DNA of 33,177 bases from an uncultured Gammaproteobacteria bacterium (GTDB lineage Bacteria > Patescibacteriota > Microgenomatia > UBA8517 > JACQJR01), in assembly GCA_964363945.1 (NCBI GenBank), contig CAYIKF010000003.1, positions 5,693-38,869 of the forward strand, read 5' to 3'. Both the position numbers and the translations under genes were made by a program. Under the pieces are notes generated by a model, which was not told the origin of the DNA, did not search any database, and saw only the letters and a program-made list of their open reading frames with translations. Positions 66 to 24,272 of this stretch are shown here, piece after piece. Each line of letters begins with the position of its first letter. Within the stretch, counting starts at the first letter, position 1.

Positions 66-121
66 CCAAATTCCAAATCTCAAATCCCAGACAAATTCAA
101 AATTATAAATTCCAAATTCAA
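66..121. repeat. degenerate tandem heptamer array (CCAAATT/CCAAATC/TCAAATC ... AATTCAA/AATTATA/AATTCCA/AATTCAA), intergenic
   Basis: Read directly. Seven of the eight consecutive 7-nt windows, in one phase, are variants of the same unit. The array lies downstream of the glyQS stop. Confidence 0.6.
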
Positions 122-168
122 AAGTTTTGAGAATTCGAATTTAGAACATTTGATTAGGTTAATTCTCA

Positions 169-6083: not shown

Positions 6084-6111
6084 ACGATTTATGATTTACG
6101 ATTTAAGATTT
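6084..6111. repeat. tandem heptamer array A[C/T/A]GATTT x4 spanning a stop codon and an intercistronic junction
   Basis: ACGATTT ATGATTT ACGATTT AAGATTT. It encodes the last 7 codons (KILNRKS) plus the stop of the GT4 gene and runs into the 7-nt spacer before the manC start. Confidence 0.8.
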
Positions 6112-7198: not shown

Positions 7199-8365
7199 TT
7201 ACACTGAATTATATACACGAAGTGTTTCTTTCGCCATATTTTGCCATGAGAATTGTTGGGCTCTTTTCTCGCCCTTTTCCACCATTCTTCGATGTTTCGA
7301 GTCATCAAGGCGCAATACTTCACCTATTTTTTGAGCAATATCACCAACATTGTAAGGATTAAAGTATGTTGCGGCATCACCGTAAATTTCATGGAAGACC
7401 GGAATATCAGAACATACCACGGGGCACCCTGCTGCCATTGCTTCAAGGCCAGGCAAACCGAATCCTTCAGATAAAGATGGAAAAACAAATGCTTTCGCGT
7501 TTTTATAAAGCAGTGCTAACTCATCATCAGGAACGAATCCTAAAAAGTTCACAAAAGAATCAGCTTTGATTTTGTTAACATATTGTATTAATCGGGCAGT
7601 GAAAACATTCCGTGCACTCACGATAACTAAATTGATATGCAATTGTTTTACTGCACTAATAAGTCTTTCTAAATTTTTATGCGGATACGCACTTCCTGTA
7701 TAGATAACGTAAAGTTTATTTATTAATGAATATTTATTAAGGATTTTCTGTGATTGGTGATTGCCGCCCTTGGCGAGCCTCGCCTTCGGCGGGGTGATTG
7801 GTGATTTGAAAGAATCGTCGATTCCTTCATAAATAACCGTCACCCTCTCTTCATCTAATCCATACTCTTTCAGCAACTCCTCCTTCACTGCTTGACTTGG
7901 AACAATGATCTTTCTAGCCTTGTGTACTGCATTGCTAAATACCATCTTATATCCTGTATACTTTAGCCAATAAAGAAACGGCGCACGTGTTGTGGTTGCG
8001 GATCCCCGGGAAGTATGTTTTATTAAATCATGAATTGTGACAACAAATGGGCGCTTAAAAAAAAATGGTACATTAAAGTGAGGGAAATGGGCCAAGTCGA
8101 AATCTAAATTATTCAAAATCTGAGGAAGTCTAATTTGTTCTTGAAAACTGTAATGAGGACAATCTGGTTTGATAATTTCCATTTTCCATTTTCCATTTTC
8201 CATTGATTTTCCAATTTCTAATTTTTCAATTTGTGAATTATTAACCAAAACCACATGCTCATTCGCTGTATCTACAAGTTTCAGTTGACCAACCAAGTTC
8301 ATCACGTATCTGCCAATACCTGCATGTTCTAGTCCATACATTCGTGCATCAATAAGTATCTTCAT
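7199..8365 (-). CDS. GT4-family glycosyltransferase (start moved to Met25 of the track ORF)
   Basis: Canonical GT4 N-terminus MKILIDARMYGLEHAGIGRY begins at 8365, which avoids overlap with the upstream gene ending at 8380. C-terminal block FPSLSEGFGLPGLEAMAAGCPVVCSD ... FSWQNMAKETLRVY. Confidence 0.85.
   Translation of the reverse strand: MKILIDARMYGLEHAGIGRYVMNLVGQLKLVDTANEHVVLVNNSQIEKLEIGKSMENGKWKMEIIKPDCPHYSFQEQIRLPQILNNLDFDLAHFPHFNVPFFFKRPFVVTIHDLIKHTSRGSATTTRAPFLYWLKYTGYKMVFSNAVHKARKIIVPSQAVKEELLKEYGLDEERVTVIYEGIDDSFKSPITPPKARLAKGGNHQSQKILNKYSLINKLYVIYTGSAYPHKNLERLISAVKQLHINLVIVSARNVFTARLIQYVNKIKADSFVNFLGFVPDDELALLYKNAKAFVFPSLSEGFGLPGLEAMAAGCPVVCSDIPVFHEIYGDAATYFNPYNVGDIAQKIGEVLRLDDSKHRRMVEKGEKRAQQFSWQNMAKETLRVYNSV
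7750..7807. repeat. copy 1 of a dispersed GC-rich hairpin element nested between GTGATTG heptamers (putative miniature mobile element), inside a GT4 ORF
   Basis: 7757..7806 is 48/50 identical to 17702..17751. The core 7764..7792 is CCGCC-CTT-GGCGAG-C-CTCGCC-TTC-GGCGG, a two-stem hairpin. Flanking GTGATTG GTGATTG lies at 7750-7763 and GTGATTG GTGATTT at 7794-7807. Confidence 0.9.
8176..8204. repeat. perfect tandem heptamer array TTTCCAT x4 inside a GT4 ORF
   Basis: Read directly. CC dinucleotides recur at 8179, 8186, 8193 and 8200. Degenerate CCAATTT / CTAATTT units follow. The array encodes MENGKWKME. Confidence 0.92.
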
Positions 8366-8379
8366 AATATCGCCTGTGT

Positions 8380-9291
8380 TTACCAAAAAAACTGTCTGTA
8401 CTTCTCTAAAACCCAAATTCCCATCCCCACTAGCCATAGGATTGGTGTTGGATAACGTCCCACATAATGTTTCTTATAAAAAATCCTCATTGCTTCAATA
8501 GACGCGCGTGTTGCCATCTTTCGTATCTCTTTTGTCGCCACAGATACTTCCTTTGTATGTTTTTTAATTCCTGAGGATACTCCTCTATAGTGCAAAATAG
8601 ATACAGTTGGAACATACATTATTTTCCAACCCGCTTTTTTTAACCTGAAACAGAAGTCAATATCTTCCCCATACCAAAAATAATCTTCATCCCACCAACC
8701 TACCTTTTCTCCGGCTTCACGACGAACTATCATAAATGCTCCGCTAAGTGCGTCTATTTCGTGGGTTGTGATTCTTGGAAGATAACCCATTGTGTATCCA
8801 GAGAATAAACGTAATTTTGGGAACAGTCGCTCAAGCCCAAAGAAGTGGCAAAAAGCATTCCAGGGAGTGGGGAAACCGCGATGTGCCGCTTCATCCAGTC
8901 CACCATCGGGGGATTTTAATTTACAAGTTGCAGCCCCAACCTGTGGATGTTTATCCATAAAGCGAGTCATAAAACTGAGGGTATTTGGATTTACAATTGT
9001 ATCCGGGTTCAAAAAAAGAATATACCGACCTTTTACATAAGGCACTGCAACATTATTTCCCTTGGAAAATCCAAAATTTTCTTTGTTTTCAATAACTTGA
9101 TACTTGATACTTGACACATGATACTTCTGAAGTGCTTCCACGCTTCCATCGGACGAGGCATTATCAACTACAAATATATCCCATATATATCCATTTTTCT
9201 TTGAATTTTCGATTGATTGAATACACTGAGTAACAAAATTTTTTGCGTTATAATTGAGAATCACAATTGAAAGATCTGGATGTGTTTTCAT
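8380..9291 (-). CDS. GT2-family (GT-A fold) glycosyltransferase
   Basis: 303-aa ORF. LSIVILNYNAKNF ... VVDNASSDGSVEAL ... NFGFSKGNN ... LFLNPDT (DxD-type) ... GAFMIVRRE ... FWYGEDIDFCFRLKKAGWKI. ATGA overlap with the upstream GT4 at 9288-9291. Confidence 0.88.
   Translation of the reverse strand: MKTHPDLSIVILNYNAKNFVTQCIQSIENSKKNGYIWDIFVVDNASSDGSVEALQKYHVSSIKYQVIENKENFGFSKGNNVAVPYVKGRYILFLNPDTIVNPNTLSFMTRFMDKHPQVGAATCKLKSPDGGLDEAAHRGFPTPWNAFCHFFGLERLFPKLRLFSGYTMGYLPRITTHEIDALSGAFMIVRREAGEKVGWWDEDYFWYGEDIDFCFRLKKAGWKIMYVPTVSILHYRGVSSGIKKHTKEVSVATKEIRKMATRASIEAMRIFYKKHYVGRYPTPILWLVGMGIWVLEKYRQFFW
9095..9129. repeat. tandem heptamer array ACTTGAT ACTTGAT ACTTGAC ACATGAT ACTTCTG inside a GT2 ORF
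   Basis: Read directly. It encodes KYHVSSIKYQV in the loop between the DGS..EAL helix and the VIEN strand. Confidence 0.85.
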
Positions 9292-10478
9292 TGCGGATTT
9301 GCTAATTGGCGATAAATCTTATCGAGTGCGTTTGCTGAAGCTTCCCAATTATACTTCTCTCTCACTAATTTTCTTGCATTGGTAGCAATTTTTTCTGACA
9401 ATTTTTTATCGGTGAGTACACGCACTGTTGCCTCAGTCAAATCTTGCTCGGTGTTGCGAATAAGTGCATGTATTCCATCCCTTACATCCAGTCCCTCAAT
9501 ACCAATCTTTGTAGTTACTACGGGAACGCCTGATGCCATTGCTTCAAGAATTTTAAGTCGTGTCCCCCCCGGACCTTCAATCGGCGCAACTAATACATCT
9601 GCCCTCTCATATGCCTCACGAATATCGGGCATACCTTCGACAACTTCAATATCTTTACTTTGTAACTCTTTAACCTTTCGTGTTAAGCTCATACCTACAA
9701 TCAAAAGCTTTGCATTTGGAATCCTCTTTTTAATTCGTGGCCATATGCGTGTTGCAAGCACATCTACTGCCTCTCTATTTTGTAGCCATTTGAAATTACC
9801 CACATAAAGAATTCTTTGGAGACCGACGTTTCGTTTGTTTTTTATTGAAAAGTAATCAGTATCTATACCGTTAGGCACGATATCGACTGCCAATCCAGGA
9901 ACAAGCTTTTGCATTGAGTGCCTATCCGCCTCGGACATTGCAACAACTCTGTTCGCCCGTTGCCAAAAGTACGTCTCCCAAAACTTTATTTTTGCAATAT
10001 CAATCCACAAGAGTGGGCGTAAAAAAAACGGCGCTTGCTCTTCGACATAATGTTTATAAACAAGATATTCTACCGTTTGCTCAACAAGTAAAATAGGAAT
10101 GGATGTTTTGGGAATATGCGGCATAACATAGAATGTCTCCGCATGAATTAAATCATACGATACTTCCCGCAAATGTGCTCTCACTGCCTCTCGCTCTTGT
10201 GGAGACAAATTTCTCATCACTAAAAAAGGATAGAGAGAGAAACCTGTGAGTAAAATGTTACGCAGTGTCCAAGGATTATTAGAACGGGGAAATATCACCA
10301 CATTTTTGCAAAACTTCTTAAGTTCCCCAATGTAACGCTGCTCTCTTTCATCTTTTACCAAAGAAAAAAGGGTAATTTCATGCGTAAGCGATAAATTTTT
10401 GAGCAAGTTATACGAGCGGGTTTGCCCTCCGGATAAAAGCGGATAAGGAAGGTAGGGAGTAAGCATTAAAATTTTCAT
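9288..10478 (-). CDS. GT4-family glycosyltransferase
   Basis: 396-aa ORF. MKILMLTPYLPYPLLSGGQTRSYNL N-terminus and C-terminal block APIEGPGGTRLKILEAMASGVPVVTTKIGIEG. ATGA overlap at 10475-10478. Confidence 0.85.
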   Translation of the reverse strand: MKILMLTPYLPYPLLSGGQTRSYNLLKNLSLTHEITLFSLVKDEREQRYIGELKKFCKNVVIFPRSNNPWTLRNILLTGFSLYPFLVMRNLSPQEREAVRAHLREVSYDLIHAETFYVMPHIPKTSIPILLVEQTVEYLVYKHYVEEQAPFFLRPLLWIDIAKIKFWETYFWQRANRVVAMSEADRHSMQKLVPGLAVDIVPNGIDTDYFSIKNKRNVGLQRILYVGNFKWLQNREAVDVLATRIWPRIKKRIPNAKLLIVGMSLTRKVKELQSKDIEVVEGMPDIREAYERADVLVAPIEGPGGTRLKILEAMASGVPVVTTKIGIEGLDVRDGIHALIRNTEQDLTEATVRVLTDKKLSEKIATNARKLVREKYNWEASANALDKIYRQLANPQ

Positions 10479-11953
10479 TGTAGTTTAACCACCACATACT
10501 GATCTGTTTTCTCAACCACTTGGTACTTTTCCATAATTTCTTCTGTTTGCTTATCAAATTTAGTTGGATTTTGCTGAGCCGGTATAGCTACATAATACTG
10601 TGCACCAAGCCGACTAATCATTTGGTCCATTGGGAGCGTCACAAAGGGCCACCCTTGACGTTTCGTTTGATATAAGAATGCAGTATCGCCATTGTAGGGA
10701 GCGATGATTTTTGCGTCTTTTGGTATTAATCGGTCAGCTGCAGCGCCGGCAATAATAATTTCAGGATGATTTACTTTATAAAATTCTTTAATTTGATAAA
10801 AAGAAAATGCCAATCCTGCTGCGAGAACCCCCAGCACTGCCACGCGGGTAAGTAATTGGTTGAACGCGCGCAGCCGCCATAGCAAATACGTTCCGTTCGC
10901 GAGAGGAAAGACAATCGCTGGAATAAGTAGTGTTTGGTAGTAATCGTGCCGCACATTTGCGGTTGCCACTACCGCTATGTACAACAACTGTCCCGCAAGC
11001 ATTGAGTGTACAAACCAGGGGAACTTCCCACGGGAAGGAGAAAGAAGCCCAATGACAAATGGAACAAGCGCCCATCCTCCTAAAATGAGCTGACCGAGAC
11101 GCTGTCCAAATATCCACCACCAAAACGAGGGTTTAAATCTAATTTCATCTCCATTAAATGCCCATTCCCAAAAAGGAATACCCACAAAGTAATAATCGTA
11201 CCCCATCCATGCGCGCCAGAAGAAAACCGGGATAAGCGAGAGACAAAAAAACATCCATAGTTTTGCCTCTTTTACCGCCCCCCAAACACCATATTTCGTC
11301 ACCACGAGATAAAGCATCGGTATGCCATAAAAAACAATGTAAGGTTTAAGCAGTAGTGCTGTCGCAAAAAAGAATGCCGAGGTAAACAACTTCCATGACC
11401 GTTCGGTATCAATCCACCAGATAAAAAACCATACGCTTGCGAGTGCAACAGTAACGGTCAAAGGATCGGGAAGTATGACGCGCGAAAAATAGATATTGAA
11501 GGGAAGAACGGCAAAAAATAGTGCAGCAAGTAAAGCTACCGGAGTCCCCAAAAATCGTTTACCGATTAAATAGATAAAGAACAGTGATATAAGAGAGGTA
11601 GCAGCAGTGATGAGTCGACCCCACCGCTCAAGTGACCAGGAAGGAAATGCCTGATAAAGGAGTGCATGCACAGCGTTGAAAACGGGAAATTCAACAAATC
11701 GGTAACCCTTAGGATTCTCATATCCTGTAGCACTGCTTGAGATATTAAGATAGCGAGGACGAAGGAGATCAATCCCGTTCTGTACGTAAAACCGAGTGAC
11801 TGAGGCAGTATCTGCCTGTCGCCAAGAATGCCAGTCAGCAATAGGATTATCTATTTTGTAAAGACGAGCCCATAGTGCAATAAAAAGAATGAGTATCAAT
11901 AAAAGATACTCTGGTTTTGATAACCTTTTTATTATTCTAATAATTTTCTTCAC
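10475..11953 (-). CDS. polytopic GT-C membrane glycosyltransferase (ArnT / PMT / GT39-like)
   Basis: 492-aa, multi-TM ORF. The N-terminal region LILFIALWARLYKIDNPIADWHSWRQADTASVTRFY is typical of ArnT/PMT_2-type polyprenyl-phosphate-sugar-dependent transferases. Confidence 0.78.
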   Translation of the reverse strand: MKKIIRIIKRLSKPEYLLLILILFIALWARLYKIDNPIADWHSWRQADTASVTRFYVQNGIDLLRPRYLNISSSATGYENPKGYRFVEFPVFNAVHALLYQAFPSWSLERWGRLITAATSLISLFFIYLIGKRFLGTPVALLAALFFAVLPFNIYFSRVILPDPLTVTVALASVWFFIWWIDTERSWKLFTSAFFFATALLLKPYIVFYGIPMLYLVVTKYGVWGAVKEAKLWMFFCLSLIPVFFWRAWMGYDYYFVGIPFWEWAFNGDEIRFKPSFWWWIFGQRLGQLILGGWALVPFVIGLLSPSRGKFPWFVHSMLAGQLLYIAVVATANVRHDYYQTLLIPAIVFPLANGTYLLWRLRAFNQLLTRVAVLGVLAAGLAFSFYQIKEFYKVNHPEIIIAGAAADRLIPKDAKIIAPYNGDTAFLYQTKRQGWPFVTLPMDQMISRLGAQYYVAIPAQQNPTKFDKQTEEIMEKYQVVEKTDQYVVVKLQ

Positions 11954-13295: not shown

Positions 13296-14187
13296 AAATC
13301 CTACTCCTTGGTGTAATGATACCAAAAATAAACATGCGAAGGACACTTCCTATAAAAAGTAAAAGGCGCAAAAACGCAAAGGCCATTTTTGAATAATGTT
13401 TTTTGTAAAGAAGTTTGAGGCCCTCGAATTCACGAAGAACCGTTCCCTCTCTTGTTCCACTTGCTCCCCCGAAGTGGATTATTTTCGTTTTTGGAACATA
13501 CCACACCTCCCACCCCTTGGCTTTAGTCCGCATACAATATTCAACCTCCTCTACATAGAGAAAGAAGCTCTCATCAAACAAACCAATCTCGCGAACTACC
13601 TCTCGCCGAATTAAAAAAAATGCTCCTGTTACCCAATCAAGCGGCCGTTCTTTTGAATAAGCAGAGCTTGACTTCGTATAAAAAGACCTATGGGGATGGT
13701 ACGAGCCAAAAAAATCGCCTACAAATGGTACGTCATCAATGAGTGTTGCCCACAAGAACACTCGCGGTAAGGTCGGGGAAAATCCGCCTGTTGGTTGGAG
13801 CGTGCCATCGGCATTTACTAATTTACAACTGGCAATGCCAACCTTTGGATGCTCATCCATCCACATCACCATACTAAGTAAAGAATTCTCAATTAATTTT
13901 GTATCCGAATTAAGAAGTAGAATATAACGTCCCTTTGCCTTCTTCATCCCCTGATTATTCGCCGCCCCAAATCCCTTGTTATCTTTATTTGTTATAACCT
14001 GTAACCTGTAACCTGTAACTTTCAATTTGCGTAATGCTTCAACTGTTCCATCTGTTGAATTATTATCAATCACAATAATTTCATAGGTTATGTCCTTCGT
14101 ATACTTCTTCACTGACTCTATACACTTCAAAAGAAGTTCTTTTGTGTTATACGACACTATAATTATCGAAAGATCAACTATTTCCAT
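13270..14187 (-). CDS. GT2-family glycosyltransferase (paralog of 8380..9291)
   Basis: LSIIIVSYNTKELL ... VIDNNSTDGTVEAL ... NKGFGAANN ... LLLNSDT ... GAFFLIRREV ... FLYVEEVEYCMRTKAKGWEV. It is collinear with 8380..9291. The track start 14217 is possible, and Met11 (14187) gives a smaller overlap. Confidence 0.85.
   Translation of the reverse strand: MEIVDLSIIIVSYNTKELLLKCIESVKKYTKDITYEIIVIDNNSTDGTVEALRKLKVTGYRLQVITNKDNKGFGAANNQGMKKAKGRYILLLNSDTKLIENSLLSMVMWMDEHPKVGIASCKLVNADGTLQPTGGFSPTLPRVFLWATLIDDVPFVGDFFGSYHPHRSFYTKSSSAYSKERPLDWVTGAFFLIRREVVREIGLFDESFFLYVEEVEYCMRTKAKGWEVWYVPKTKIIHFGGASGTREGTVLREFEGLKLLYKKHYSKMAFAFLRLLLFIGSVLRMFIFGIITPRSRIYVHALGRI
13995..14019. repeat. perfect tandem heptamer array AACCTGT x3.6 inside the paralogous GT2 ORF
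   Basis: Read directly. It encodes KVTGYRLQV at codons collinear with the array at 9095..9129. Confidence 0.92.
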
Positions 14188-15442: not shown

Positions 15443-16129
15443 TTATGCTCTTTTTTTCTTCCTCTCACTTACCACAATCCAGGTAACAATTATCACTACA
15501 AACAGCACAGTAAACACTGGACTCCCAATTACTCTAATAAATGGGAGTCCGAGACTGTATGCTAACACACCCCAAAATGTATCTCGTAAAAGTAATGTGG
15601 GAAGCAGGACTAAAAAGAATCTCCAAAATGGGTAATGCAATATTCCCGCTGCGGTTGAGGCGATGGCAGCCGTCGGCGGGAGAAGCAAACTTACCACTAA
15701 AAATTTATTTTTCCCTTTACTCAATCTTTTACTCACTTGCTCTAATGGTTCCTGGGAACCAAATTTAGCCAAAAGGGCGTAAAGTCCGAATTTTCCAAGT
15801 GCATAATCAATTAAGTTGCCCGCGCTAAATCCAATTGTTCCGAAAAGAATTACATTTGTAAGTTGGAATAAGTCTTCCGAAAAAATTGCCCCCAAAAGTG
15901 CAACCATCGAACCCGGAAAATATAAATTAAGAACAAAGAGTCCCTCAATAAATGAGCCAATAAGTACAGTAATTACTCCATATCTTTCATAAAATCCACG
16001 CAACATTACTATTAATTCAGACAAAGTTGGCCATTTAAGTAAAAACGCGCCAAGATTGAGAATAAAGAATACGAGAATAAGAATGGTTGTGGGATGTCTA
16101 ATTATTCTTCGAATCATGAGGAATGACAT
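15443..16129 (-). CDS. DedA / VTT-domain family membrane protein
   Basis: 228-aa polytopic ORF with a DedA-like block YGVITVLIGSFIEGLFVLNLYFPGSMVALLGAIF. Confidence 0.7.
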   Translation of the reverse strand: MSFLMIRRIIRHPTTILILVFFILNLGAFLLKWPTLSELIVMLRGFYERYGVITVLIGSFIEGLFVLNLYFPGSMVALLGAIFSEDLFQLTNVILFGTIGFSAGNLIDYALGKFGLYALLAKFGSQEPLEQVSKRLSKGKNKFLVVSLLLPPTAAIASTAAGILHYPFWRFFLVLLPTLLLRDTFWGVLAYSLGLPFIRVIGSPVFTVLFVVIIVTWIVVSERKKKRA

Positions 16130-17243: not shown

Positions 17244-18410
17244 TTATTTTAAAATCCTTTCTAACACCTCTAATGTTTGTTGGGCTGCTTTTTGCCAGTC
17301 GAAGAGTTTGGTGCGCTCTAAGCCTTTTTTGGATAATGCGTCATAATTTTTAAGAGCCTCTTTTATCCCACGAGCAATATCTCCTGGATCGTCGGGATTC
17401 ACTAAAATTCCTGCATCTCCCACAACTTCAGGCAAACTTCCGACAGTTGAGACGACAACCGGTGTTCCTACTGCCATTGCCTCAACTACTGGAATTCCAA
17501 ATCCTTCCCAAAAACTAGGCAAGACAAAAACTAGAGCTCCTGCCATGAGAAGCGGCACATCATCATCTGGTATAAAGTCAGTAAAAACCACTTTATCCCG
17601 AAGGGGCAAGCTCCGCTTATCTTCTAAATCTAATTCTTTTACTTTTTTGAAAATTGATTCATATAACCAACCCTTTTTACCGGCAATAACAAGAGTGATT
17701 AGTGATTGCCGCCCATGGCGAGCCTCGCCTTCGGCGGGGTGATTAGTGATTAGTGAGAAAGCAGTCAGCAAACCTTCAATGTTCTTACTTGGTTTTAGCG
17801 TACTCAGAAAAAGAATATAATCATCTTTAATGTTGTATTTTTTCTTTACTTCTCTAATTTTAATTTTTGATATTTGATTTTTAAATTTATTTTTATCGTA
17901 TCCCGGATACGTAACCGTTATTTTTGAACGTGGAATTTTGTAATACCTGATAATGTCTCTTTTTGTGCTTTCTGAAATAGCAATGACGTGGTCTGACTTT
18001 TTAATAGAGTGGGCTGTCCAAGAAGTTAATTGGTAAAGATCGCGGCGTGTAAATTGATCGGGGTATCGCAAATACCCAAGGTCCATTATTGAAACAACTG
18101 TCGGAATAGGTGACCAACGAGGACGATAATGCCCTGGGGTAAAAAATACTTCGGGTCTTGGCTCGGCAAAAAAAAGAGAAAGAGGAAGCGCAAATTGAGT
18201 CCATAAACGCTTAGGGCCGAAGACTTTATATTTCCACCATGAAATTTCTTTGGGCATGTCAGGAAGGGGAGTATCACGTAAATAAATCATCCACTCATGT
18301 TTTTTTGCCTCTGGCAAGTTATACAAAGCATGGAGAAGTTCAAACGCATATTGGTTTGATCCAACACGCCGTTCTACATTTGCTTCATTGCCATCAACGC
18401 CGATTATCAT
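17244..18410 (-). CDS. GT4-family glycosyltransferase
   Basis: 388-aa ORF. MIIGVDGNEANVERRVGSNQY N-terminus, C-terminal block LPSFWEGFGIPVVEAMAVGTPVVVSTVGSLPEV, and tail FDWQKAAQQTLEVLERILK. Confidence 0.85.
   Translation of the reverse strand: MIIGVDGNEANVERRVGSNQYAFELLHALYNLPEAKKHEWMIYLRDTPLPDMPKEISWWKYKVFGPKRLWTQFALPLSLFFAEPRPEVFFTPGHYRPRWSPIPTVVSIMDLGYLRYPDQFTRRDLYQLTSWTAHSIKKSDHVIAISESTKRDIIRYYKIPRSKITVTYPGYDKNKFKNQISKIKIREVKKKYNIKDDYILFLSTLKPSKNIEGLLTAFSLITNHPAEGEARHGRQSLITLVIAGKKGWLYESIFKKVKELDLEDKRSLPLRDKVVFTDFIPDDDVPLLMAGALVFVLPSFWEGFGIPVVEAMAVGTPVVVSTVGSLPEVVGDAGILVNPDDPGDIARGIKEALKNYDALSKKGLERTKLFDWQKAAQQTLEVLERILK
17695..17759. repeat. copy 2 of the dispersed GC-rich hairpin element nested between GTGATTA/GTGATTG heptamers, inside another GT4 ORF
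   Basis: GTGATTA GTGATTG + CCGCCCATGGCGAGCCTCGCCTTCGGCGG + G + GTGATTA GTGATTA GTGAGAA. It is on the same strand as copy 1 but is read in a different codon phase. Confidence 0.9.
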
Positions 18411-18427
18411 ATATTAATGCATGATAA

Positions 18428-19519
18428 TTACACTACACTCCGATATACTTCTAATGTTTCCCTTGCTGCTTTCTCCCATGAGAACTGTTTTACTCGAGCC
18501 AATCCTTTCTTAATGAATTCTCCCCTTTTGGAAAGCACGCGTTCAATCCCTCTTCTTATATCATCAACATCCTCCGGGTTTACCAAAACTGCCGCGTCCC
18601 CTGCTACCTCGGGCATACTTGAGATGTTAGACGTTACTACCGGACATCCGCACGCCATTGCTTCTAAAATTGGCAAACCAAACCCTTCGTATAGGGAAGC
18701 GTAAATAAGCGCTTGTGCACCACTATAAAGTGCGGAGAGTTCGCTTCTTGAAACATGACCAATCCACAAAATATTGTCCCGCGGAGCGGGATCCTGCTTC
18801 GCGGGATGCGACCACCTTTTTCCCACAACAACCAATGGCGGTGCATCGGGAATGAGTGTAAGTGCTTGAGCTACATTTAATAGATTTTTTCGCGGATCTG
18901 CTCCTACTGCAAGCAGGAAATGCCGTGGAAGACCAAATTTCTTTTTTACCTCCCCTACCCTCTTATCCCCTACTTTTCTATAAATTGCATCCGGCGCCTC
19001 ATACACTACTGAAATTTTTTCCGCCGGAATTCCCAAATAAGTTATGATGTCATTTTTGGTAGCTTCCGATACTGCTATCACCCGTTCACATTCTCTCTTT
19101 ACCCACTTAAGCTGTCTTTTGTGTACTGCAATAATCTTAGGATGTGAACTCTCTGGGTATAAAAGCGGCACTAAATCATGCACTGTAGTAACCAGTTTTG
19201 CTTTTCTTGATGGTGGTTGTGTCCAATTAGAAGAATGGAACACATCAACCGAACCCACAAAATTTTCAATTGGAAAGATGTGAAGCCGATTCCATAAAAG
19301 GTCAAGCATCATTGGAGATAAAGGATAAAACTTTTTTGTGAAATTACCTGAAAGGTCCTTGCTAAAATGATTTAAATCAGGCAAACGGCGCATGGCACCA
19401 CCGAAGAGGAAATACTCATCTTTTTTATCAAACGAGAGGAGTGCGTGTACCAAATTCCTTGTATACCACGAAACGCCAGTCTCATAAACTATTTGCGAAA
19501 TATCTATTCCAATCTTCAT
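18428..19519 (-). CDS. GT4-family glycosyltransferase
   Basis: 363-aa ORF. MKIGIDISQIVYETGVSWYTRNL N-terminus, block ASLYEGFGLPILEAMACGCPVVTSNISSMPEV, and tail FSWEKAARETLEVY. Confidence 0.85.
   Translation of the reverse strand: MKIGIDISQIVYETGVSWYTRNLVHALLSFDKKDEYFLFGGAMRRLPDLNHFSKDLSGNFTKKFYPLSPMMLDLLWNRLHIFPIENFVGSVDVFHSSNWTQPPSRKAKLVTTVHDLVPLLYPESSHPKIIAVHKRQLKWVKRECERVIAVSEATKNDIITYLGIPAEKISVVYEAPDAIYRKVGDKRVGEVKKKFGLPRHFLLAVGADPRKNLLNVAQALTLIPDAPPLVVVGKRWSHPAKQDPAPRDNILWIGHVSRSELSALYSGAQALIYASLYEGFGLPILEAMACGCPVVTSNISSMPEVAGDAAVLVNPEDVDDIRRGIERVLSKRGEFIKKGLARVKQFSWEKAARETLEVYRSVV
18777..18806. repeat. 30-nt GC-rich near-perfect palindrome embedded in-frame in a GT4 ORF
   Basis: TCCCGCGGAGCGGGATCCTGCTTCGCGGGA. 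The outer 7-bp stem is TCCCGCG/CGCGGGA. The inner arms pair with two G-U positions around a GATC loop. It encodes PAKQDPAPRD. Confidence 0.85.
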
Positions 19520-20972
19520 CTTGAGTTAATTGTACGCCTCGCTCGTATTCGAACACAAACCCCACTCCTCGGAAGTTATATGTTGCTACCTTAACAAAAC
19601 CCTTCTCGTCTAATGTCTTTTCAACTACCCCCTCAGGATCATTTATCTCGACCAAATATTGAAAAACAAAAATTTGCTCTCTCTCTTTTATAATTTGGTC
19701 AAGTCCAGGATTCAAACCCCCTACACCATCAACAATCCCTTTTGAATACCAAGAAAAACCAGGCATCACACTTTTGCTCTCAAAAAGAACAAGAACGCCA
19801 GGAGTTGCTTTTTGTTCAATAAAGGATACTGCCCCTCTCCAATCTTCTCTCTGAAAGCGTGAATTGAAAAGATAGATACCACTTGAAACTATATTAACCA
19901 AAAGTAACCCAACCACCATTATCAACCTCACTTTACTGTTTTTAAATGAAAGCGCGCCAAATGCCGCGAGTAAATAAAATGGGGGTAATAAGAAAATGAG
20001 CCGAAAATAGGAAAATACTGAAACTTTGAGTCCCACCAGAGCCACTGCGAGAATAGGTAATGTAAACCATACCCATAAAAAACTAGTCCGCTGCCACAGA
20101 GTAACACTTTTGAGGAAAACGCTCGCAAAAAGCACAGTTGGAATAACAAGCAACGCGGCATAAAGCACACTATTTTCTGCCGATATTCTCCCAATCATAA
20201 ATTTAATAGGTACTAAAGCAAGCTCTTTTACGTTCGTTCCGCCCAGCACATTCCACCATTGGGGGTTAGTCATTTGTACACCCAAGCCTGCCGCAAGTTG
20301 CCCAAATAATATCGGAACCCAAGGTAAAAAAAGGAAAAGAATGGCTATGGTAGCTAACAACCAGTTGGTAACACTCTTTTTAAGATGTTTTCTTTCGAAC
20401 ACGAGTAAATACAAAGCGAAAAATAGAAAAAGAAAAACGGGGAGATAATCGGTATAGAGAAGAAGTGTACTTACAATTACTAATCCCACCCAATCCGACG
20501 CTTGCTGTTTTTTCGCTTTGATAATTTTCAAGAAAAACAAAACTGAAAGGGTTGTAAAAAACACTGCCGGAACATACATTCGTGCTTCTTGAGAATAGTA
20601 AATGTGTAAACCTGAAGTTGCCAAAAAAAGAGCTGCAACTTCAGGAAATTTCCAATTTCCAATTTCCAATTTCCAATTAATTTGTTCAATTAAAATTTTC
20701 CCAATTAAGAAAACTACCCAAATTGTAGCAACACCAAACAAAACTGAAAGCATACGTATAGCGACCTCCGATGTACCAAAAACTTGTATAAAGAAGTGGA
20801 GTATCAAGTAGTAAAGTGGTGGGTGAAAGTCACCAGGAGAGAATTGTGCTAAAATTTCGGCAACAGAAAAGTCGCGTGCCACTAACGCGCTTGTCGCCTC
20901 ATCATGCCAAAAAGATTGGTTAAGGGAAATCAGTCTAAGTAAAAACCCAAGTATAAGAATTACGAAAATCAC
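19482..20972 (-). CDS. polytopic GT-C membrane glycosyltransferase (PMT_2 / ArnT-like)
   Basis: 496-aa multi-TM ORF. The N-terminus LLRLISLNQSFWHDEATSALVARDF ... FHPPLYYLILHFF is typical of the PMT_2/ArnT family. The GTG start forms a GTGA overlap with the upstream GT2 gene (20969-20972). Confidence 0.78.
   Translation of the reverse strand: MIFVILILGFLLRLISLNQSFWHDEATSALVARDFSVAEILAQFSPGDFHPPLYYLILHFFIQVFGTSEVAIRMLSVLFGVATIWVVFLIGKILIEQINWKLEIGNWKFPEVAALFLATSGLHIYYSQEARMYVPAVFFTTLSVLFFLKIIKAKKQQASDWVGLVIVSTLLLYTDYLPVFLFLFFALYLLVFERKHLKKSVTNWLLATIAILFLFLPWVPILFGQLAAGLGVQMTNPQWWNVLGGTNVKELALVPIKFMIGRISAENSVLYAALLVIPTVLFASVFLKSVTLWQRTSFLWVWFTLPILAVALVGLKVSVFSYFRLIFLLPPFYLLAAFGALSFKNSKVRLIMVVGLLLVNIVSSGIYLFNSRFQREDWRGAVSFIEQKATPGVLVLFESKSVMPGFSWYSKGIVDGVGGLNPGLDQIIKEREQIFVFQYLVEINDPEGVVEKTLDEKGFVKVATYNFRGVGFVFEYERGVQLTQDEDWNRYFANSL
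20647..20678. repeat. perfect tandem heptamer array AATTTCC x4.5 inside a GT-C ORF
   Basis: Read directly. CC recurs at 20652, 20659, 20666 and 20673. It encodes NWKLEIGNWKF in a loop between TM segments. Confidence 0.92.
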
Positions 20973-21811
20973 TTTGCTCCTCTACCTGTCATCCGATATT
21001 CTAAAATTCCTATAAAAATTCCAAAATCATAAACAATCTTAAAGATGAGAAAATGCGGCGTTTTATTAAGGATAGATTTTACCAGTCCTACTACTAGTGA
21101 TACCGGTAAAGACGCGCGAAATAGTGCAAAAGTTGCTCCGAGGATTCCCAATTTATACTCTCTTTTAGCAACCCAATGCGCGTGGTTAAAAACTTCAGAA
21201 AGATTACTGGGATTTGCATGATAAAACTTAGCATCAGGGGCAGCTACTGCTTCATATCCAAGTTTCTGACTTAAACTCCAATCATCCGTATAATACCCAC
21301 CAAGTTCAAATCCTCCTACCTTATCAAACTCACTTTTTAAAAGTGCTCTGAAAACCTTCTGTGTGGGTGGGTAGTTTTTAGGATGGCGCTTTCTCTCCTC
21401 CCAACCCTCATTTATATTCCAACACAGCGCCCACACATTTTCCCAGTTTGAGACATATTCCTCACGACTCCACGTGCCGCTTGCGTTCCCTCTTATTATT
21501 GGTGCAACCAACTTCTCTATAAAGTCCCTCTCAAACGTCATATCCGCATCAACAAAAACGAGTATTTCTCCTTTTGCATGGGTTGCTCCCAAATTCCTCG
21601 CCTCACCTGGTCCCTTATGTTTCTGTTCAAAAATTCTTAAATCGTACTTCTTAAATCTTAAATCTCCGACAATACTAAGGGTATTGTCGATCGAGCCATC
21701 ATCTACAACAATTACCTCTATTTTTTTGTAAGTTTGTTCGCACAAAGATTCCAAACACTTGTTAATTGTTTCCTCTTCGTTATAAGTAGGAATAATAACT
21801 GTGACTTTCAT
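20969..21811 (-). CDS. GT2-family glycosyltransferase with hydrophobic C-terminal segments (possible polyprenyl-phosphate sugar synthase, GtrB/CsbB/Ppm-like)
   Basis: 280-aa ORF. VTVIIPTYNEEETI ... VVDDGSIDNT ... VFVDADMTF, followed by C-terminal hydrophobic stretches (LGILGATFALFRASLPVSLVVGLV, FLIFKIVYDFGIFIGIL). It is translationally coupled to the downstream GT-C gene. The lipid-carrier role is inference. Confidence 0.8.
   Translation of the reverse strand: MKVTVIIPTYNEEETINKCLESLCEQTYKKIEVIVVDDGSIDNTLSIVGDLRFKKYDLRIFEQKHKGPGEARNLGATHAKGEILVFVDADMTFERDFIEKLVAPIIRGNASGTWSREEYVSNWENVWALCWNINEGWEERKRHPKNYPPTQKVFRALLKSEFDKVGGFELGGYYTDDWSLSQKLGYEAVAAPDAKFYHANPSNLSEVFNHAHWVAKREYKLGILGATFALFRASLPVSLVVGLVKSILNKTPHFLIFKIVYDFGIFIGILEYRMTGRGAK
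21636..21665. repeat. tandem heptamer array CTTAAAT CGTACTT CTTAAAT CTTAAAT inside a GT2 ORF
   Basis: Read directly. It encodes DLRFKKYDLRI, again in the loop following the DDGS.DNT motif. Confidence 0.8.
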
Positions 21812-21877
21812 TTTGAGCCTAAGTGAGAAACAAGCTCTGCTTATTTTGAACGTCAGTGAGAAACAAGCTCTGCTTAT
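21811..21877. repeat. 33-nt tandem duplication (30/33 identical, with a perfect 23-mer AGTGAGAAACAAGCTCTGCTTAT x2) filling the intercistronic spacer
   Basis: Units are 21811-21843 and 21844-21876. On the coding strand each unit starts with TAAGCAGAGCTTGTTTCTCACT. The first TAA (21876-21874) is the stop of the GT4 gene, and the array ends at the ATG of the GT2 gene (21811). Confidence 0.9.
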
Positions 21878-22884
21878 AATTTTTTAAATAATTCTTCATA
21901 CTGCTTTGCAATTTTGTCCCAAGAGAATTTTTCTGCTTGACGACGAGGTTTGTCTCCCTGTTTGGCATTCAGTGCCTTTTTCAGAGCGGCAGCATAAGCA
22001 TTTGTATCTGTTGGATTAACTAAAATCCCCGCATCACCTACTATTTCTTCCCTTATCAAGTCATTATTTGCAACCACGGGTAGGTTTGTCGCCATTGCCT
22101 CAACAAGAACAATTTCAAAAGAATGGTAGGATTCTGAAGGAATAGTAAATACATCCGCTACCCTATACGCAGTAGGCAACTCTTCATATGACATTTTAAT
22201 TAATTGAAACTGCTCGCCAAGAAGCTTCATCCCTAACTTGTGTATTTTTTCTCTTAGTGGACCATCCCCTACCACCAAAATACTCGCGTTCCCAAACGCA
22301 GCTGTCGCTTTAATTGCCAAGTCAACTCTTTTACCCACAGTTAATGCTGCAACGCAAAGCACAATTGGATGCTTTAATTGAGTAGAAAATTTTCGACCGC
22401 TGGGTGAGAACTTTTGTAAATCCACACCATTAGGGATATATTGAACTCTCACCAGCGGATTCGCTTTTTTAGCCCAATCTCCTGCAAAACTTGAAATAGC
22501 CACAAAAACATTTGGAAAACTCCATAAATTATGTCTGTCATCCCATCCCATCCCCGACTGTCCACTGATTATCACTTTCCCACCATATAACCATGTAACA
22601 ATACGAACAAACGTTGACTGCCATCCACCATTCAATGGAATAACAATATCAAATTTCTCCTTCCAAAGGAGAGGAAGGGTTTTGAGTGTAAACCACAATA
22701 TGTAGAGACCGTTAGGATCGACAAAAAAGTGCCAGACAAAAGGCCATCTCTTTGGTGGAATTTTATTTCCACTCATTACCACAATCTCATGGTTTCTTTT
22801 TAATCTTTCCGAGAGCTCCCGCACGAATGTCTCTGCACCCCTTTGCACCTGGCCTTGATAAATATTTAAAAATACCACTCTCAT
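21874..22884 (-). CDS. GT4-family glycosyltransferase (start at Met8 of the track ORF)
   Basis: MRVVFLNIYQGQVQRGAETFVREL N-terminus. The ATG at 22884 forms an ATGA overlap with the upstream stop. C-terminal block IPSESYHSFEIVLVEAMATNLPVVANN ... FSWDKIAKQY. Confidence 0.85.
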   Translation of the reverse strand: MRVVFLNIYQGQVQRGAETFVRELSERLKRNHEIVVMSGNKIPPKRWPFVWHFFVDPNGLYILWFTLKTLPLLWKEKFDIVIPLNGGWQSTFVRIVTWLYGGKVIISGQSGMGWDDRHNLWSFPNVFVAISSFAGDWAKKANPLVRVQYIPNGVDLQKFSPSGRKFSTQLKHPIVLCVAALTVGKRVDLAIKATAAFGNASILVVGDGPLREKIHKLGMKLLGEQFQLIKMSYEELPTAYRVADVFTIPSESYHSFEIVLVEAMATNLPVVANNDLIREEIVGDAGILVNPTDTNAYAAALKKALNAKQGDKPRRQAEKFSWDKIAKQYEELFKKL

Positions 22885-24272
22885 TTTGCGCGCTCCCATA
22901 GCCAAACTCCCGGCTTTACTTCTTCCTCTTTAGTATAGTGCTCCTCTATCCAGCGAACAATTTTTTGTGGTTGATAAGTCCCTAAGTCAAACCAGTTTCC
23001 CGGGGAAGGTGTACGCCAGAAAATAAAGTGTGGTGGCCCACCAGCTGACGAATTTTCCCAGCGGGCGATAATTTCCTCCTGAACGCCAGGAATTTCAAGA
23101 TACCATCCGAAATTGTCAGTCCAACGTTTTGGGGGAACTCTCCCTGCCATTACATAAAGTCCTGAGTGGAGACCCAATAGAAAAACTTTTTCGCTCTGCG
23201 GAACTTTACTTTGAATCGTTTGTGCTAATTCCAAATCCTCTTTTGCGTAAAACCGTGTTTCTCTTCCCCACTCGCTAGAAAGGAGCGGACGATGGATAGC
23301 AAAGAAGATAAGTAATAAGTAAGAAGTAATAAGTAATAACTTAAATCTTTTTATTTTCATTTGATTAAAAAGCAAACCATAAAGAATAACCAGAAAAACG
23401 AGAGCTGTTTGAAAGTGAAAAAAAGAAAAACGAGGATAGATTATGATAAGCGCAATTACTAGAAAGGGGAATAAAACTTGAAATACTGAATCTTTAAGAA
23501 TTTCCTTATTCTTAATGATGATAATTAAAAGTGGCACAAGTAAAAAAATACTTATAAATGCTTGCCCAGGAGATACCTCCATATGCACATATCCCGGAAA
23601 TTTACCAAACTGCGTAAGAGGATAAATAATTGTCCAGTTTAAAAAATCAACGAGCGCTCCCTCTTGTAAAAGCCTAATCAAAAGTGGAATCCCTAAAATC
23701 AAAGGACCATAAAATAAGTATTTCAATTGATTAAAACTTGTTTTCTTAATAAGAAGTAAATATAAAATAGTAAATAACAAATATAATCCTGCTGTTTGTT
23801 TGGTAAGAGCAGCCGCTGCAAAAAATAATCCTGCCAAGAATAAATTATGTCTTAACAAAAATAGTGTTCCCAAAAGGATTGGGAGAACAATTGCAATATC
23901 AAACCATAGCATGTTTCCTTCGAGAAAGGGCTGCAAAAAGATATACGCCGCAACGGCAAAAAACGCCGGTGCATCGCGGCGGGTTGTGGAGCGAGTAATA
24001 ATAAACACAAGAATATCACTTACAAGAATTACCGCCCATGCTACACTTTTGAGTACCCAAAGATGATAGCCAAAAAGCGTGTACGCCCACGAAAGTGCCA
24101 TGGTAAGAAGCGGAGGATACGGATGAATCATATCTTTATAGATGAGAAATCCGTGATTACGAAGATAAGAATACGAAAGCATCTCAGGCCAGGCAGTAAA
24201 TTGAAGATTGGCTAGGAAAAAAAAGTGAAGCCCCAGTAGTAAAACAATCAGAATGTATGTCCCATATCTCAT
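22881..24272 (-). CDS. polytopic membrane protein, putative GT-C-type glycosyltransferase
   Basis: The ORF was trimmed to Met51 (MRYGTYILIVLLLGLHFFF) because that ATG forms an ATGA overlap with the methyltransferase stop (24269-24272). It has about 12 hydrophobic segments followed by a soluble C-terminal domain. The architecture is ArnT/PMT-like. The family call is tentative. Confidence 0.55.
   Translation of the reverse strand: MRYGTYILIVLLLGLHFFFLANLQFTAWPEMLSYSYLRNHGFLIYKDMIHPYPPLLTMALSWAYTLFGYHLWVLKSVAWAVILVSDILVFIITRSTTRRDAPAFFAVAAYIFLQPFLEGNMLWFDIAIVLPILLGTLFLLRHNLFLAGLFFAAAALTKQTAGLYLLFTILYLLLIKKTSFNQLKYLFYGPLILGIPLLIRLLQEGALVDFLNWTIIYPLTQFGKFPGYVHMEVSPGQAFISIFLLVPLLIIIIKNKEILKDSVFQVLFPFLVIALIIIYPRFSFFHFQTALVFLVILYGLLFNQMKIKRFKLLLITSYLLLIFFAIHRPLLSSEWGRETRFYAKEDLELAQTIQSKVPQSEKVFLLGLHSGLYVMAGRVPPKRWTDNFGWYLEIPGVQEEIIARWENSSAGGPPHFIFWRTPSPGNWFDLGTYQPQKIVRWIEEHYTKEEEVKPGVWLWERAK
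23310..23339. repeat. tandem heptamer array AAGTAAT AAGTAAG AAGTAAT AAGTAAT inside a membrane-protein ORF
   Basis: Read directly. It encodes LLITSYLLLI, part of a TM segment. Confidence 0.85.

Follow-up and report, generated by a model that had tools for sequence, protein, structure and literature searches.

A 30-nt GC-rich hairpin as a candidate mobile DNA element read in frame within genes of uncultured groundwater bacteria

Rickettsia palindromic elements (RPEs) are described as palindromic selfish DNA that lies in frame in unrelated housekeeping genes and is translated at positions compatible with the protein fold (Ogata et al. 2000, 2002, as presented in PMC10969869). They are approximately 150 bp long, fall into about ten families and, according to the account given in PMC10969869, are confined to Rickettsia. 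Functionally, RPEs are the closest known system to the element reported here, a 30-nt hairpin which is likewise palindromic, resides in frame in unrelated housekeeping genes at fold-compatible sites and is presumably translated. What separates it from RPEs is its length of only 30 nt, its occurrence in uncultured groundwater and sediment bacteria (MAG labels Patescibacteria, Melainabacteria and others) and its defined register in heptamer arrays. In size and nesting, the closest known system is that of the small dispersed repeats (SDRs) of Nostoc. SDR4-6 of Nostoc punctiforme, reportedly described by Elhai and co-workers in 2008, are said to be near-identical dispersed repeats of 21-27 nt which are thought to be mobile and which show filled/empty polymorphism between relatives. 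SDR5 reportedly inserts between nucleotides 3 and 4 of HIP1 and, as far as that description goes, SDRs are said to occur in Nostocaceae only. The element has in common with them the very small size (about 20-30 nt), near-identical dispersed copies, the lack of an internal transposase and a precise insertion inside other short repeats. The filled and empty sites of the element would agree with the behaviour described for SDRs, but its length is 30 nt. Unlike Nostoc SDRs, which were compared by description, most of its copies lie in ORFs and in frame. No Cyanophyceae-labelled genome was among the 29 matches of an exact 30-mer scan of species-representative genomes, and in the first 50 kb of the N. 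punctiforme plasmid pNPUN01, CA-starting heptamer arrays are present, none of them interrupted by a hairpin.

REP sequences and REPINs are non-autonomous imperfect palindromes of 20-40 nt, which are mobilised by RAYT (HUH Y1) proteins and thought to move as single-stranded hairpins without target duplication (PMC3116915, PMC3733652). REP families are largely species-specific, some of them occurring in several species (PMC3733652). REPs are extragenic, carry a GTAG or CGTC tag and usually form inverted doublets; a cognate RAYT gene resides in the same genome, between copies of the repeat. The element resembles them in being a short, imperfect palindrome present in many copies (84 distinct sites), non-autonomous and without target duplication. 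However, it is untagged, with ends CCCG... and ...GCGG and flanks that are variable except for a 3′ C, it is mostly intragenic (approximately 60 of the 84 sites in long ORFs), and it is common to distant lineages. Its copies occur singly; the only doublet (L064) is in direct orientation. MITEs are 70-300 bp long and possess terminal inverted repeats of 15-30 bp and a target-site duplication (PMC3733652, PMC10969869), whereas the element totals 30 nt and its filled and empty sites differ by exactly this length, without duplication. The element does not show the features by which tagged REPs, MITEs and RPEs are defined.

The window, i.e. the whole stretch of 33,177 nucleotides that was analysed, contains a 65-nt direct repeat in two copies (7750-7814 and 17695-17759) which are 91% identical. 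Both copies are centred on a 30-nt GC-rich core, which on the minus strand reads CCCGCCGAAGGCGAGGCTCGCCA[A/T]GGGCGG; a 22-nt stretch of it is identical between the copies (chance expectation 0.00). Each core is bordered by two heptamers per side (Table 1). The preliminary description had placed both copies on the coding (minus) strand and one codon phase apart. Both statements hold, as each copy lies inside a long minus-strand ORF, and counting from the two start codons puts the first C of CCCGCC at codon position 1 in copy 2 ((18410-17738) mod 3 = 0) and at position 3 in copy 1 ((8437-7793) mod 3 = 2). In the proteins, the inserts appear as ...SLITNH-PAEGEARHGR-QSLITLVIAG (copy 2) and ...FKSPIT-PPKARLAKGG-NHQSQKIL (copy 1). 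The window sequence including both elements was found unchanged in two independent Hainich groundwater assemblies (well H43, 0.1 µm fraction) and, thus, the copies are not an artefact.

Table 1. Positions of the two cores, their heptamer flanks and the host genes in the window
Feature	Coordinates	Strand	Remarks
Host gene 1, intact GT4 glycosyltransferase	7199..8437	(-)	412-aa ORF; homologues start at ~M24 (position 8368), corresponding to a 389-aa form
Heptamers 3′ of copy 1	7750..7763	(-)	CAATCAC CAATCAC
Copy 1 core	7764..7793	(-)	CCCGCCGAAGGCGAGGCTCGCCAAGGGCGG; encodes PPKARLAKGG
Heptamers 5′ of copy 1	7794..7807	(-)	AAATCAC CAATCAC
Host gene 2, intact GT4 glycosyltransferase	17244..18410	(-)	388 aa
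Heptamer tract 3′ of copy 2	17695..17708	(-)	CAATCAC TAATCAC; excision of exactly 30 nt restores the heptamer register
Copy 2 core	17709..17738	(-)	CCCGCCGAAGGCGAGGCTCGCCATGGGCGG; encodes PAEGEARHGR, residues 225-234
Heptamer tract 5′ of copy 2	17739..17759	(-)	ttctcac TAATCAC TAATCAC (coding strand)

Both host ORFs are full-length GT4 genes with a conserved catalytic EGFG...E motif and a homologue coverage of 99-100%. The proteins have homologues by the thousand, the named ones being annotated as Patescibacteria or Microgenomates, and judging from the sequence neither gene resembles a pseudogene. AlphaFold models of the two hosts (mean pLDDT 93.0 and 90.6) confirmed the earlier claim that the sites are structurally different, one being a linker and the other a helix-strand loop of the C-terminal domain. 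The copy 2 insert was modelled as a loop (residues 224-238) between a helix (211-223) and a strand (239-243) of the C-terminal Rossmann domain, with pLDDT values below 50 at residues 231-234. The copy 1 insert lies in the inter-domain linker, and the pLDDT stays below 50 across it (residues 192-200, counted in the 389-aa form). Both inserts are thus predicted to reside in surface loops of low confidence.

Whether single-stranded RNA or DNA, the core adopts a hairpin in which a symmetric 3x3 internal loop separates a 5-bp outer stem from a 5-bp inner stem, the latter being closed by a triloop. The folding energies range from -17.7 to -18.9 kcal/mol as RNA and are about -11 as DNA (copy 2: -18.9 and -11.4, respectively), with z about -2 to -3. 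Six-frame translation of the 30-nt core was free of stop codons throughout. It had been supposed that the element or its flanking heptamers are stop-free in several frames; this is true for the core but not for the heptamers, which do contain stops, and across the whole 65-nt unit of copy 2 only the used frame is open. The absence of stops in the core results from its GC-rich composition. As a sign of selection or design it was rejected, because 74.5% of composition-matched shuffles are equally stop-free, compared to 1.9% of 30-mers at 40% GC, the GC content of the window.

To assess the sites of the window copies in relatives, 120 homologues per gene were aligned, in which both insert positions proved to be highly length-variable. 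The empty site of copy 1 was found in an orthologue with 63% identity (L130), whose sequence ttc AAATCAC CAATCAC CAATCAC CAATCAC aaaaaatcc equals that of the window minus exactly the 30-nt core. In another orthologue (L131, 76% identical), exactly this junction is occupied by a different hairpin, 39 nt in length. For copy 2, an empty form exists in L030, where the TCACTAA tract is uninterrupted and without a core. The orthologue P0095 in L032 harbors the core at the same loop in antisense orientation, between AGTTACG heptamers and read as RRPWRASPLAG, and the closest relative (L033, 79% identity) possesses a hairpin of inverted heptamers instead of the core. The heptamers appear to be a pre-existing tract of the host gene and not a part of the inserted unit. 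The preliminary description had regarded the repeat as a nucleotide-level element, a view that is strongly supported by the empty sites, the dispersal over about 84 unrelated sites in all three sense frames and in antisense frames, the antisense copy in L032 and the loop models. With a probability of roughly 0.85, we are dealing with a non-autonomous mobile DNA hairpin of only 30 nt, which makes no target-site duplication and is read through in frame as a loop.

A clean indel was detected in SSB, which is also among the host genes of the element. Between L043 and L135, the SSB genes agree at 431 of 447 nt (96.4% DNA identity) and differ in length by a sole indel of 30 nt, exactly the core, at the junction gtg gtt ^ cct gc(c/a) gaa; heptamers are entirely missing at this site. 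Thus, the element is precisely gained or lost between near-identical genomes, the direction of the indel not being polarised. A set of 120 SSB orthologues collected by protein similarity, i.e. without pattern ascertainment, comprised sequences with the intact ten residues, sequences with mutated ones (PAEGEARQER, PTEGETRQGQS, PAEGEARPSGR) and close relatives without the insert. A decayed version that is still in frame is cccAccgaaggcgagActcgccaagggcAg. In the SSB copy of L136, three of the 30 positions have changed from G to A, two of these being stem positions, and the frame is kept here as well. Old copies thus decay, and the invariance of the core suggested by the pattern scans was rejected as an ascertainment effect, since these scans demanded exact stems.

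These data bear on the possibility that the hairpin is functional at the RNA or DNA level, e.g. as a protein binding site or as a translational pause between domains, and is kept by selection, mobility being only its means of spread. Three SSB lineages retain a perfect core although their flanks are only 57-76% identical, the hairpin is stable (about -18 kcal/mol) and there is a strong bias towards the sense strand (approximately 53 to 7 among ORF-internal copies), all of which would fit such a function. However, the perfect cores stem from exact-match scans, so that their conservation is partly ascertainment, while the unbiased SSB set includes empty sites and decayed copies with stem-breaking substitutions. 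Moreover, the host genes and the positions therein are unrelated, and a scan of the region did not match the hairpin to any Rfam family. A function of this kind is, therefore, improbable.

Beyond the window, an exact-pattern scan identified the core in 29 stretches of species-representative genomes and in 96 further metagenome stretches, mostly from groundwater and sediment. After deduplication, 108 unique copies at approximately 84 distinct sites remained. The MAGs concerned are labelled Saccharibacteria, Parcubacteria, Uhrbacteria, Moranbacteria, other Patescibacteria, Melainabacteria/Caenarcaniphilales, Planctomycetales and Actinobacteria, one of these labels probably being wrong, and the GC content of the contigs varies from 31% to 68%. 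Intact host genes identified by Pfam encode MutS, GatA, TrmD, UvrD, GluRS, MetRS, ArgRS (twice), GAPDH, RuvC, Tgt, methionine aminopeptidase, MurG, RecG, QueG and others. Incidental copies in 887 kb of fetched DNA include a 36-nt form (L016) and other variants. An exact scan of IMG/VR gave 0 matches to the core in viral contigs, and a BLAST comparison of the 65-nt unit with 72,556 plasmids and 50,697 phages yielded only chance partial GC-rich matches. A full-text literature search for the DNA, RNA or peptide strings of the element returned no published match.

The ORF-internal copies are distributed unevenly over the reading frames. Approximately 41 of the 53 or so sense copies are read as PAEGEARQGR (frame S0), eight as PPKARLAKGG (S1) and four as RRRRGSPRA (S2), and at most seven are antisense. 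In these figures the SSB cluster is assigned to S0, the antisense ORF predicted there being spurious. The predominance of one peptide is what would be expected if the insert were a module selected at the protein level. This explanation, as well as an assembly or sequencing artefact, is effectively refuted: ORFs run through this DNA in three sense frames and also in antisense ones, 24 of the 84 sites lie outside long ORFs, and the DNA identity goes far beyond the need of a ten-residue peptide. The element is present in many independent projects and in replicate assemblies, and the precise register rule in the heptamer arrays (see below) speaks against both possibilities. A target preference was rejected as the cause of the frame bias. 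The preference Y^C[A/C] predicts only about 40% S0, compared to about 77% observed, so that selection acting on the encoded peptide best accounts for the S0 excess. The S0 peptide is hydrophilic and net-neutral, whereas the peptides of the other frames are strongly basic or hydrophobic. When orientation was tested against the replication strand by GC skew, 51 of 77 loci were positive, and the antisense cases tracked the gene strand. The sense bias thus appears to go with the direction of the gene and not with GC skew.

In principle, the insert could remain untranslated, either by being spliced from the mRNA or by being bypassed by the ribosome, the flanking direct repeats serving as take-off and landing sites. 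In programmed bypassing, known from T4 gene 60 and the byp elements of Magnusiomyces mitochondria, the insert breaks the frame or carries stops and is skipped between matching take-off and landing codons. A GC-rich hairpin within an AT-rich gene and between identical heptamers may, by analogy, resemble such bypass signals. Unlike these, every ORF-internal copy seen preserves the frame and is stop-free, so that nothing needs skipping. The length variants of 36 nt (L016) and 39 nt (L131) are multiples of three, decayed copies remain in frame, and the flanking direct repeat is missing at more than half of the sites. Removal of the insert at the RNA level or during translation is, hence, highly improbable, and we infer that the inserts are probably translated.

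The rule of insertion emerges from the flanks of the copies. The base 3′ of the core is a C in 106 of 107 copies, the base 5′ of it usually a T or C. In the 40 heptamer-flanked copies, the unit consensus is C-A-(A)-n-n-n-(T/C), and deletion of exactly 30 nt restored the array register in 37 of them (p about 3e-28). Even in arrays whose other units begin with T, the unit following the core begins with C. At 47 of 83 scored sites (84 after deduplication), heptamers are absent. For these sites a model with a 7-bp target duplication was rejected, as the flanks do not match; in most listed non-heptamer copies, the 7-nt flanks agree at 0-4 of the seven positions. In 9 of the 47 non-heptamer sites, six or more of the first nine core bases recur at the corresponding positions of the right flank, versus 2.6% in controls (p about 3e-6), examples being the sites in SSB, GAPDH and MutS. 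This likeness may be a trace of target recognition, or it may make an exact loss through slippage more likely.

It may be asked whether the bare core is the inserting unit at all, as the mobile unit might comprise the hairpin together with the heptamers on both sides of it, or the hairpin might spread by recombination or gene conversion between dispersed arrays. Different core-bearing loci of one MAG or sample do share a unit type, frequently down to unit variants and often in a 2+2 layout. This applies to the window pair, L114 and L028 (all (C/T)AATCAC, two units per side), to L021/L025 (CAAATGT CAAAGGT | CAAATGT CAAAAG) and to L072/L078. In addition, orthologous loops of close relatives bear arrays of different unit sequence. 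By contrast, (C/T)AATCAC arrays in the lineage of the window exist both with and without the core, and core-free arrays of the same unit are found in L130, L030, L131 (at 890) and L114 (at 2684). Furthermore, heptamers are lacking in the filled/empty pair of SSB and, as stated above, at 47 of the 83 scored sites. A composite or recombining unit is, on this evidence, unlikely, if not as remote as a function of the hairpin itself. The heptamers could be a lineage-specific target, or they could move together with the core; the machinery of the hairpin might also be what writes the arrays.

Taking the core itself as the mobile unit, we conclude that the 30-nt GC-rich hairpin is very probably inserted as DNA directly 5′ of a C (roughly Y^C[A/C]) without target-site duplication. 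Its preferred landing site is the junction at which one unit of a tandem CA(A)nnnn heptamer tract meets the next. With a length of 30 nt and no stop in any frame, it never breaks the ORF into which it inserts. The ten extra codons are probably translated, and copies would persist where the host protein tolerates an additional loop, as in surface loops, linkers or disordered tails. Each of the two window copies probably inserted independently, into (C/T)AATCAC tracts already present in two paralogous GT4 genes, which would account for their being read in different phases. The lack of a duplication, the hairpin body and the short fixed flank suggest by analogy that a structure-specific HUH/Y1-type enzyme (IS200/IS605 or RAYT-like) might act in trans and move the element in single-stranded form, but this is a doubtful guess. 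Enzymes of this type likewise place hairpin-ended DNA beside a short specific target, strand-specifically and with no duplication. Single-strand transposition of the IS200/IS605 type may be comparable in the absence of a duplication and in the fixed flanking base; the orientation bias of the element appears to follow the gene strand. Clustering of 1,965 neighbouring ORFs, taken from stretches of 1-14 kb around the copies, did not reveal a recurrent transposase but recovered only orthologous neighbourhoods and aminoacyl-tRNA synthetases; neither a TnpA nor a RAYT-like gene was seen next to any copy.

Genomes of the candidate phyla radiation are small and gene-dense and leave selfish DNA little space between the genes. 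An element of 30 nt that is tolerated inside essential genes would show how mobile DNA can persist in such genomes, and it would be a concrete source of lineage-specific loop insertions in the proteins of these bacteria. In alignments, phylogenies and structure predictions of these organisms, its inserts mimic protein-level indels. Literature searches did not reveal a description of such elements in bacteria of the candidate phyla radiation. To our knowledge, the enzyme behind very small repeats is a question left since the work on Nostoc SDRs and REPs; the clean 30-nt filled/empty pairs together with the strict array register provide a defined substrate and target to search for it. A wider proposition, to which we would give somewhat less than an even chance, is that the element and its 36-nt and 39-nt relatives represent a new class of ultra-small, frame-neutral hairpins. 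They would be active, move horizontally among groundwater lineages (Patescibacteria, Melainabacteria) and be inserted by a trans-acting enzyme at CA(A)nnnn landing pads. With the intragenic arrays they would form one two-tier system related to the STRR and SDR repeats of Nostoc and would be a general source of loop insertions in proteins of streamlined genomes.

The arrays themselves resemble a separate class of dispersed repeats with fast turnover, and the hairpin is nested in them. Dispersed heptamer repeats are known as cyanobacterial STRR and as the TAACTGA repeats of Beggiatoaceae, Cyanobacteria and Bacteroidetes, which show a patchy spread across phyla and are mostly intergenic (PMC4679880). 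Like these, the landing pads described here are tandem heptamers, one unit recurring at several loci of a genome. In contrast to them, the arrays are intragenic, encode loops and host a nested hairpin. In the window, there are about a dozen period-7 tandem tracts, nearly all of which are located within ORFs.

At both sites occupied by the 30-nt core in the window, hairpins of a different kind were found in related loci. An orthologue of GT4-1, the host gene of copy 1, from Logan SRR22388223 (L131, 1311-1349) contains a distinct 39-nt hairpin, CCGCCCGCATCGCCTAAGCTCAGCTTTGGCGGGCGTGGC, which is read as RPHRLSSALAGVA and sits at the very heptamer junction where the window has the core. In the closest relative MAG (locus L033, about 10670-10740), the site of copy 2 holds a hairpin composed of inverted CCCAGTA-like heptamers.

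Cores may also occur in pairs or within other repeats. In the RecG locus of a Melainabacteria MAG (L016, 1440-1550), a canonical core is followed by two heptamers and then by a 36-nt relative, CCCGCCCAACAGGGCGAGGCTCGCTCTACAGAGCGG, while a single heptamer lies between two canonical cores in another locus (L064, 2556-2621). At five loci (L001, L017, L056, L091 and L113), the core sits within a longer inverted repeat, gtcattcccgcc...gcaggcgggaatcc, an arrangement suggesting that the core inserted into a repeat of a different palindromic family. Those of the five that derive from MAGs carry the label Saccharibacteria.

The GT4 gene hosting copy 2 contains a second in-frame insert (table), which is bordered by a GATAA direct repeat and translated as KRSLPLRD. 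These residues are missing in all 29 closest homologues among the matches listed and fall within a low-confidence block of the protein model (residues 261-270, mean pLDDT 66). Further copies of the insert were not present in the fetched loci, except in the window's own assembly. The third GT4 gene harbors a GC-rich hairpin read as PAKQDPAPR, the surrounding protein segment varies in length, and the two orthologues compared (L033 and L030) have different sequences at this position. The L033 orthologue (8819-9982) possesses a 22-residue GC-rich insert in its linker, GRRPGEASRRVGDSPESETGSE.

L033 and L028 belong to one MAG (GCA_964442455.1, contigs CAYTZB01) entitled 'uncultured Gammaproteobacteria'. 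This label is probably wrong: the MAG contains the syntenic glycosylation cluster and encodes GT4 proteins that share 70-79% identity with the window's own, and among the homologues of the latter the named ones are Patescibacteria.

Period-7 tandem tracts of three to eight units are common in the window, the majority of them within ORFs (table). In GT4-1, four ATGGAAA units on the coding strand (8174-8205) encode MENGKWKME, which falls within a low-pLDDT block of the model; at the orthologous position, L131 has an AATCAC-type array instead. On plasmid pNPUN01 of Nostoc punctiforme (L134), inverted pairs of CAGGAGT-type heptamer arrays (964-1082 and 1559-1991) border small genes, one of which is annotated as encoding a four-helix-bundle protein. 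Within the 50 kb of pNPUN01 examined, several perfect heptamer arrays can also be written with a CA start, as in the arrays that host the hairpin core.

Inserts, hairpins and period-7 tandem tracts in the window
Feature	Position	Strand	Location
24-nt in-frame insert, gcggagcttgccccttcgggataa	17593-17616	-	GT4 gene hosting copy 2
GC-rich hairpin, CCCGCGAAGCAGGATCCCGCTCCGCGGG	18778-18805	-	third GT4 gene, 18428-19519
Period-7 tract	66-123		
Period-7 tract	6086-6111		
Period-7 tract	8174-8224		
Period-7 tract	9095-9126		
Period-7 tract	13995-14019		
Period-7 tract	16058-16084		
Period-7 tract	20647-20678		
Period-7 tract	21635-21665		
Period-7 tract	23308-23339		
Period-7 tract	23755-23776		
Period-7 tract	29007-29043		

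A longer tandem repeat, 2.1 repeats of the 33-nt unit ATTTTGAACCTAAGTGAGAAACAAGCTCTGCTT with 91% identity (21810-21877), occupies the gap between the ORFs 20969-21811 and 21874-22905.
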